DNA from: Phyllosticta citribraziliensis
Lineage: Eukaryota
Assembly (NCBI RefSeq): GCF_038025025.1
Contig: NW_027117341.1
Location: forward strand, 1,240,001 to 1,304,000
Length of the DNA stretch: 64,000 nt
Direction: 5' to 3'
The position numbers and the translations under genes were made by a program. Each line of letters begins with the position of its first letter. Positions within the stretch are counted from its first letter, which is position 1. The notes beneath the pieces were generated by a model, which saw nothing but the letters and a program-made list of their open reading frames with translations, was not told the DNA's origin and did not search any database. This document shows, one piece after another, positions 54,695 to 55,398 of this stretch.

Positions 54695-55398
54695 TCAAAC
54701 AGAAACACCGCCGCAAGTCAGACTGCCCGTCCCATGGTTCTCAGCGCAAAGCTGGTCATCGCAGCAATCAGTGTAGACGCCATTGTTACCGCACTCAGCT
54801 ATCACTCGTCAGCATCAAATCTCAAATCGAACCAGACTCGTCACTAGGGGCGTAGTAGGGAGAGAGAAAGGGAAAACGTACAACCAAGCGCCAAACACCT
54901 CTTCTCGATGAAGACGTTGTCTGCAGCACGCGCCGCGACGGGCGCGACGGAGACGATAGGCGCGACAGAGACGGTGGGCGCGACAGAAGCGACGGGCGCC
55001 CCGGACGGCGCGACAGAAGGGGCTCCCGACACATCTACGGGCTCTGGAGCGCGTGCCGCAACGACGACGCCAGGGGACGCGACGGGGGCGCCCGACGGCG
55101 AGACATTAGGGGCGCCAGACACAGCGCGCGCCTGCAGCGGCGTCGCGGCCACGCGGGTCTCGAATGTCGTCGGCGTGGGGACGGAAGTAAAGGAGATGGG
55201 AACGTCCACGGCGGCGATGTTGGCGTTGGCCGTGGGGAGGCGCGTGCCGGTGATGATGGTGATGCCGTCCTTGACGAGCGTCGCGACGGCCACGGCGTCG
55301 CGCGGGATGCGTGTGCCGGTGATGGTGAAGACTTGGGCGAGAGCTGGCGAGGCACTGGCGGCGGCGAGGAGGGCGGCGGCGGTGGTCGTGAACTTCAT
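54695..55398 (-). CDS. Secreted prepropeptide (206 aa) with a repetitive pro-region and C-terminal six-Cys knottin-like peptide; exons 55398-54882 and 54798-54695
   Basis: Signal peptide MKFTTTAAALLAAASASPALA. An 83-nt intron GTACGT..GCTGAC..TAG (54881-54799) joins in frame to give EKR-CLALGSECGNNGVYTDCCDDQLCAENHGTGSLTCGGVSV*. Confidence 0.85.

Follow-up and report, generated by a model that had tools for sequence, protein, structure and literature searches.

What does the minus-strand locus at positions 54695 to 55398 of a 64,000-nt stretch of Phyllosticta citribraziliensis DNA (contig NW_027117341.1; the whole stretch is called the window below) encode, and is a small cysteine-rich peptide cut out of its product? 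Small disulfide-rich secreted peptides are stable, are often active where fungi meet plants or microbes, and are valued as scaffolds. The reading favoured here, at a probability of about 65%, is that the locus is a real spliced gene for a secreted pre-pro-peptide, from whose C-terminal end the convertase Kex2 would release an acidic peptide of 39 residues (the 39-mer).

The gene starts at an ATG at 55398; exon 1 ends at 54882, exon 2 ends with the stop codon at 54695, and together they encode a precursor of 206 aa. The exons measure 517 and 104 nt and are separated by a phase 1 intron (Table 1). The unspliced minus-strand open reading frame (ORF), 55398-54844, codes for 184 aa, with ..CLALGCTFSLSLSLLRP (also written ..EKRCLALGCTFSLSLSLLRP) at its C-terminal end. 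Reading through the intron at 54881-54799 meets two stops; when 54882 is joined to 54798 by script, 206 codons followed by a stop result. The intron has a GC content of 0.48 versus 0.67 for the coding sequence, and the CTGAC inside it resembles a branch point. GTACGT, CTGAC and TAG are the canonical intron signals of filamentous ascomycetes. The spliced translation matches residue for residue a public protein of P. citribraziliensis (XP_066656944.1/KAK7539673.1, J3D65DRAFT_675799; P0003 here) that is recorded as 'uncharacterized protein'. Indirect support comes from P0005 of P. paracitricarpa and from P0013, a Logan gene call of 142 aa from P. capitalensis retrieved by cluster look-up, in both of which an unrelated tail begins exactly after CLALG. 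Such tails would arise if an intron in this position were read without splicing, and the intron position would then be a conserved one. Through this apparent read-through the entire cysteine-rich peptide is lost from both records, so that two public or automatic gene calls show how easily such a peptide disappears in annotation.

The precursor begins with a sequence that, read by eye, is a putative signal peptide. The small residues at -3 and -1 match the usual signal-peptidase rule. The pattern of this region is kept in the orthologues, and Q22-V-F-T-I-T-G is invariant in a six-sequence orthologue alignment (A1). At the other end, the only cysteines of the precursor (residues 168, 175, 184, 185, 190 and 201) all lie after K166-R167. 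In the 39-mer they occupy positions 1, 8, 17, 18, 23 and 34, which gives the framework C-x6-C-x8-CC-x4-C-x10-C. The 39-mer has a pI of 4.05, five Asp and Glu residues together, no Lys or Arg, a mass of 3867 Da when reduced and a single aromatic residue, Y14; the gamma-core motif, sought in both orientations as G-x-C-x3-9-C or its mirror, is absent from it. The initial annotation of this DNA had proposed the intron and the two-exon gene, the cysteine spacing and its placement after KR, and the net acidity of the peptide. All of these hold: the intron coordinates are exact and the public model has the same product, the spacing is reproduced exactly in the spliced translation, and the acidity agrees with the calculated pI and the lack of Lys and Arg. 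Its description of the gene as hidden stands for the ORF track and falls for the public annotation, where the spliced model was already present without a name.

Orthologues occur in six species of Phyllosticta, every one of the genus that the database covers. A word-indexed query with exon 1 retrieved 3988 candidates, and the four proteins among them at E<=0.01 all belong to Phyllosticta. The same kind of query with residues 160-206 returned four proteins of four candidates, and here P0007 of P. capitalensis scored 243 bits against a self-match of 98 bits. P0007 contains three tandem copies of the 39-mer, each preceded by [V/L]EKR; behind each of the first two copies comes a spacer of 24 residues, KARDVAED.APANETLVESVLEKR. 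Cluster look-up added P0009 of P. citricarpa (245 aa, one unit, found on 8 contigs) and three further P. capitalensis records, of which P0010 (296 aa) and the partial P0012 (329 aa) have three units each and P0011 (170 aa) has one. The total is 14 units in eight protein records from the six species, with five distinct unit sequences. Only four positions vary among the 14 units (6 A/S, 10 N/D, 20 D/N and 37 V/A), all conservatively, and EKR precedes 14/14 units with I, V or L at P4. A recurrence of the 39-mer together with EKR in 14 units that differ at four positions is beyond chance.

Constraint is distributed very unevenly along the precursor. In the alignment of the six orthologues, 36 of the 39 peptide positions are invariant and free of gaps. 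The corresponding counts are 7/21 for the signal region, 36/61 for an N-terminal module of the pro-region (residues 22-82) and 5/10 for the ten residues ahead of the cut. The linker (residues 83-157) retains only 7 of 75 invariant positions, has a gap in at least one orthologue at 41/75, and differs in length among species. Because 36/39 positions are invariant in the cargo and 7/75 in the linker, the 39-mer is evidently much the more constrained of the two.

As far as protein searches and metagenome scans reach, the family appears to be confined to Phyllosticta. An exhaustive phmmer search of 1.84 billion representatives with the 33-mer of exon 2 found three proteins at E<=0.001, of which only those of Phyllosticta (two cluster representatives) are genuine; this query omits Cys1 and the first five peptide residues and is somewhat weaker than the full 39-mer. 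The third protein, P0008, is a 672-aa acidic repeat protein, cysteine-poor and without the Cys pattern, whose score is summed over nine stretches; it was rejected as spurious. A word-based search for longer forms found none, two metagenome scans gave 597 and 268 pattern matches of which 0 were confirmed, and no second copy or degenerate extra unit was found within the 64 kb window.

The units of P. capitalensis differ from each other in an ordered way. In P0010, P0007 and P0012, unit 1 is distinguished from units 2-3 by a paired swap, N10/D20 versus D10/N20, by which the net charge is kept; the pairing may be due to selection on charge or to the two positions being close in space. The single unit of P0011 has Ala6 as in unit 1 together with D10/N20 as in units 2-3, and codon 6 of the 39-mer is the codon split by the intron. 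P0011 results either from recombination that collapsed the repeat or from a gene model in which the first donor is joined to the last acceptor.

The sequence in front of the 39-mer has the form of a Kex2 site. In the described motif P1 is Arg, with Lys favoured at P2 and aliphatic residues at P4; P3 is free, Asp being unfavourable there (PMC8528282). I-E-K-R at residues 164-167, and [I/V/L]EKR in 14/14 units, match this motif as given there for effectors with a Kex2-processed pro-domain (K2PP). The predicted release of the 39-mer at IEKR by Kex2, claimed from the outset for this locus, thus gains strong comparative support, since every copy in the triple unit of P. capitalensis stands behind [V/L]EKR. 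No stronger argument for use of the site is available than this joint repetition of cargo and site, which is comparative evidence and not a proof. The triple precursor also resembles Kex2-processed repeat precursors (KEPs; PMC6339444, PMC4617103). The screen of Le Marquer et al. 2019 (PMC6339444) selected secreted proteins that yield at least four fragments on cutting at KR/RR and contain repeated near-identical cores. P0010, which has three KR, is cut in silico into four fragments with three cores and so has the fragment number that this screen demands. The P. citribraziliensis protein falls outside it because it has one core and one KR only, and yields two fragments.

Arg residues within the linkers might mark further processing. 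Contexts of the form [L/V/I]-x-[A/K]-R are found in P. citribraziliensis (LQAR, and VAAR twice) and after units 1-2 in P. capitalensis (VKAR), and LxxR sites are described in pre-pro antifungal proteins (PMC13525654). The linker contexts would fit a relaxed form of this motif, as a lead only; they could easily be chance matches because the stretch is Ala/Val-rich.

Two groups of results weigh against the favoured reading, one bearing on processing and the other on the knot. The first begins with the position of the site. KR lies at 81% of the length (166-167 of 206), outside the first half of the protein, and the K2PP effector screen (Outram et al. 2021, PMC8528282) covered the first half of proteins only; the class is defined by a pro-domain that lies in that half and is missing from the secreted protein, and the Phyllosticta pro-region extends beyond that half. 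In addition, the conservation of the N-terminal module (36/61) is unexplained by a throw-away propeptide. Both ends of the protein look functional, as they would if it were never cleaved and were instead a modular secreted or wall protein, in which the N-terminal module is joined by a probably O-glycosylated Ala/Pro/Ser/Val/Thr linker to a C-terminal Cys-rich binding module and KR is incidental. The composition of the linker is indeed like that of the inter-domain linkers of fungal secreted proteins. Such an uncleaved protein is nevertheless improbable, given that an aliphatic P4 and EKR are invariant right before Cys1 in 14/14 units, that KR is the sole dibasic site of the P. citribraziliensis protein, that the three-unit precursor of P. 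capitalensis repeats the site with every unit, and that no carbohydrate-binding or other domain family was matched. The N-terminal module itself matched no Pfam family. Within it, TGTR[I/L]P is present at residue 27 and again at residue 50, and a low-confidence AlphaFold2 model places a beta-hairpin at residues 36-53. The module could be a domain for folding or escort, or else another product of the precursor.

The second group of results concerns the fold. The pattern C-C-CC-C-C with adjacent third and fourth cysteines is overwhelmingly tied to the connectivity of the inhibitor cystine knot (ICK). In that fold the cysteines pair I-IV, II-V and III-VI, the last of these bonds passes through the ring, and a small beta-sheet is present. 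The loops of the 39-mer, 6/8/0/4/10, fall within all five of the cystine-knot ranges quoted in PMC6889267 (Cys-X2-7-Cys-X3-10-Cys-X0-7-Cys-X1-17-Cys-X4-19-Cys). From this framework and its association with the ICK, a knot in the 39-mer is judged probable. Structure prediction and database searches gave no support for it. AlphaFold2 gave a mean predicted local distance difference test (pLDDT) score of 31.1 for the full-length protein, with an alignment of six rows, and 48.8 for the 39-mer alone, which was modelled with a helix at residues 20-26 and no strands. Foldseek with this low-confidence model found 0 matches in the PDB at E<=10. The 39-mer, the 33-mer of exon 2 and P0006 matched 0 Pfam families at E<=10, the whole protein matched 0 PDB chains by sequence at E<=10, and the 39-mer had no sequence match to knottin, conotoxin or spider-toxin families in Pfam or to solved toxin chains. 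P0003 gave two sub-threshold low-complexity matches in Pfam (PT, 11.6 bits; Neogenin_C, 7.5 bits). Its ESM Atlas model has a pLDDT of 0.42; all structural rows lie below the bar for naming a family, and there were no feature matches. A PDB sequence match of the 39-mer to an MS2 coat-protein construct (E 0.42) was dismissed as chance.

Less probably, the three disulfides would adopt a non-knotted topology or pair between chains, in which case the peptide would not be a knottin: neither AlphaFold2 model is confident, the model of the 39-mer has a helix without a beta-sheet, and neither Foldseek nor Pfam yields a knottin match. The loop lengths and the adjacent third and fourth cysteines speak for the knot instead. 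The failed AlphaFold2 prediction is uninformative because the alignment was shallow and near-identical, and a poor single-sequence model is no evidence about the fold. A short helix is also present in a solved fungal knottin (PMC6889267). Two named families were considered for the 39-mer and set aside. CBM1 modules have a four-Cys pattern and a face of conserved aromatic residues. The 39-mer has six Cys with Y14 as its one aromatic residue and no match to Pfam CBM_1 at E<=10, so that the CBM1-like module named at the outset as the finding that would speak against a knottin did not appear. The superfamily of antifungal proteins (AFP), bubble proteins (BP) and NFAP2 was rejected on the absence of a gamma-core in either orientation, the pI of 4.05 and the lack of Lys and Arg.

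The favoured reading, in which the peptide is released, can be set out as a sequence of steps. An N-terminal signal sequence would take the precursor into the endoplasmic reticulum, where the six C-terminal cysteines would pair into three disulfides. In the Golgi, Kex2 would then cut after I-E-K-R167, the step with strong comparative support, and an acidic, disulfide-rich peptide of 39 residues and ~3.9 kDa would be freed into the medium, with an ICK fold that is probable and not demonstrable. The long pro-region, consisting of the conserved N-terminal module and the fast-evolving linker, would be discarded or would have a role of its own. In P. capitalensis the cargo has been amplified to three copies with predicted Kex2 sites, following the logic of alpha-factor-like KEPs.

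The possible function of the released peptide was judged from its conservation and chemistry. P. citribraziliensis is an endophyte. P. capitalensis is likewise an endophyte, P. citricarpa is the agent of black spot and P. citriasiana that of tan spot (PMC6965161). The 39-mer combines three unusual properties: it is near-invariant across citrus pathogens and endophytes, it is acidic and not cationic, and it is multiplied in the broad-host endophyte P. capitalensis. Together these point to a conserved target and not to an arms-race effector. Most likely the 39-mer would be a tight stoichiometric binder of a conserved extracellular target, acting as an enzyme inhibitor or ligand; this role is favoured because the peptide is near-invariant across lifestyles, has no positive charge and lacks a gamma-core. 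A membrane-active antimicrobial, or a fast-evolving, host-specific effector of the avirulence type, would be less likely and is ranked below it.

Near-invariance in endophytes and pathogens would also fit a conserved endogenous receptor or a structural role. The released peptide could act on the fungus itself, as a self-directed signal or as a peptide of the hyphal surface or of development, and not on a plant, microbe or animal. Such a role has been proposed for many KEPs (alpha-factor, Rep1), and a repeat number that varies is typical of the pheromone-like KEPs of fungi (PMC6339444). We regard this as a serious rival to the binder or inhibitor, if an unlikely one. No STE13-type XA/XP dipeptide follows KR, since Cys1 comes directly after it, and 39 residues with six Cys far exceed the pheromone-type cores of 9-24 aa in PMC6339444; neither point is decisive. 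Similarly unlikely is a toxin or antimicrobial directed at microbes, mites, insects or nematodes, in the manner of venom ICK peptides or pre-pro antifungal proteins. The C-C-CC-C-C pattern is shared with many venom and plant defence knottins. The AFP and BP families also combine a signal and a pro-sequence with a Kex2-like site, but members of the AFP/BP/NFAP2 superfamily are characterised as basic proteins with a gamma-core (PMC13525654). The 39-mer is acidic, has no Lys, Arg or gamma-core, and matches no toxin family or solved toxin chain by sequence.

Among known systems, the precursor resembles those in which a signal, a pro-region and a Kex2-type site with an aliphatic P4 directly precede a Cys-stabilised mature part, namely the K2PP effectors SnTox3, ToxA and SIX1/4/6 and the AFP and bubble-protein families (PMC8528282, PMC13525654). 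It departs from them in its proportions, with a pro-region of 146 residues ahead of a cargo of 39 and the site at 81% and not in the first half. Its cargo is acidic without a gamma-core and has no sequence similarity to those families. The KEPs, such as alpha-factor precursors and Ustilago Rep1, share with the P. capitalensis orthologue near-identical cores that each follow KR and a copy number that varies between species. The P. citribraziliensis protein differs from them in having one core and one KR, and a six-Cys domain of 39 residues forms that core. Neither 'knot' nor 'disulfide' occurs in the main text of two KEP surveys, and Phyllosticta and two peptide motifs are absent from the main text and text-format supplements of the two (PDF supplements excluded). 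A literature search on knottins together with Kex2 yielded no description of such a precursor.

A flexible N-terminal part followed by a C-terminal six-Cys knot is known from fungal proteins such as MLP124266/AvrP4 (PMC6889267) and the Histoplasma knottins (PMC4503680; also PMC9632046). The fungal knottin effectors, which include Avr9 of Fulvia fulva, AvrP4/MLP124266 of Melampsora and the Histoplasma yeast-phase 'Fungi1' group of the KNOTTIN database, are small, secreted and carry six C-terminal Cys in a spacing compatible with a cystine knot, like the Phyllosticta protein (PMC6889267, PMC4503680). No sequence relation to them was detected: the exhaustive search, in which the Fungi1 profile itself was not compared, matched Phyllosticta proteins only. 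The knot of MLP124266 is solved, whereas that of the Phyllosticta 39-mer is predicted from spacing. The available text of PMC6889267 and PMC4503680 mentions neither release by Kex2 nor amplification in tandem for these effectors.

Outside the fungi, the layout recalls venom peptides and plant precursors. O-superfamily conotoxins and spider toxins combine C-C-CC-C-C with a signal-pro-mature layout and a basic cleavage site, and plant multi-knottin precursors (of the cyclotide and TIPTOP types) carry several knottins in one chain. The Phyllosticta peptide differs from venom ICK prepropeptides in being anionic, in belonging to another kingdom and in matching neither a Pfam toxin family nor a toxin chain of solved structure. 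Convergence is the simplest account of the resemblance.

The peptide therefore belongs to a known kind, the Kex2-processed cysteine-rich secreted peptides of fungi, within which the Phyllosticta proteins form a new genus-restricted family. Its novel elements are the sequence family and the confinement of that family to a single genus, a cargo that is anionic, and a six-Cys core that is multiplied in a Kex2 precursor. The gene may be among the 63 Phyllosticta-unique effector orthogroups reported in PMC9073689, none of which has a functional annotation there. Confirmation of both knot and cleavage would widen the KEP precursors to folded cores rich in cystine, a case not described in the two KEP surveys. 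A bolder proposal, which we consider doubtful, is that this is the first fungal Kex2 precursor with a repeatable disulfide-knotted core, in which the N-terminal module serves as a folding or escort pro-domain and the anionic peptide binds tightly, as inhibitor or ligand, to a target common to every host or competitor of the genus. It would then be a fungal counterpart of the plant multi-knottin precursors and venom prepropeptides, with a new knottin scaffold and activity class.

The peptide gene lies between TIP41 and BRO1/ALIX in a gene-poor interval of ~5 kb (Table 1). The initial annotation had placed it in an accessory island; this is unsupported, since housekeeping genes surround it and all six Phyllosticta species sampled possess it. 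The GC content near the gene is also ordinary, with the exception of the GC-rich coding sequence itself. The gene is core to the genus Phyllosticta as sampled in these six species. A RiPP cluster (for a peptide made by the ribosome and modified after translation) was considered as well and is unlikely, as no peptide-tailoring genes occur among the neighbours.

Table 1. Coordinates of the peptide gene, its parts and its neighbours in the window.
Feature	Position	Strand	Remarks
Entire coding region (two exons and intron, 206-aa precursor)	54695..55398	-	spliced translation identical to P0003
Signal-peptide-like N-terminus, codons 1-21	55336..55398	-	MKF, Ala/Leu/Thr hydrophobic run, ..PALA before Q22; read from sequence
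Conserved N-terminal module of pro-region, codons 22-82	55153..55335	-	36/61 positions invariant, 6 orthologues
Variable Ala/Val/Pro/Ser-rich linker, codons 83-157	54928..55152	-	7/75 invariant; composition A19 V17 P13 S10
I-E-K-R, predicted Kex2 motif, codons 164-167	54898..54909	-	sole dibasic site of the protein
Start of mature-peptide coding, end of exon 1	54882..54897	-	C-L-A-L-G and base 1 of codon 173; sequence, phase 1 intron
Intron, 83 nt	54881-54799	-	GTACGT at start, GCTGAC 16 nt before end, TAG at end
Exon 2 coding part, peptide residues 6-39	54698..54798	-	spliced translation
Stop codon TGA	54695..54697	-	sequence
TATAAG, possible TATA box	55545..55550	-	~147 nt upstream of ATG; seen in sequence only
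Glutamate-5-kinase-like gene	46698-48077	-	AA_kinase + PUA
Ser/Thr protein kinase	49696-50796	-	
TIP41	51508-52143	+	
BRO1/ALIX	57132-60021	-	two frames meeting at ~58264-58271 (probably intron)
DnaJ/Ydj1-type chaperone	61171-62529	-	
SAP30-like fragment	within 46698-64000		neighbour

Smaller features were noted around the gene. The sequence GATTTGAGATTTGATG sits within the 83-nt intron, and the region 3' of the stop (54640-54694, minus strand) contains short G/T-rich repeats (GATTTG, GGGGATTTGGGTG). Elsewhere in the otherwise gene-poor interval, a patch with a GC content of 0.61-0.64 holds a 151-codon open frame at 53200-53655 on the plus strand, with an internal Met, the run RRRRRRRR and a hydrophobic C-terminal stretch (..CFLLVLVFVAVLALLSLFL..). 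This frame may be a gene for a small tail-anchored protein.

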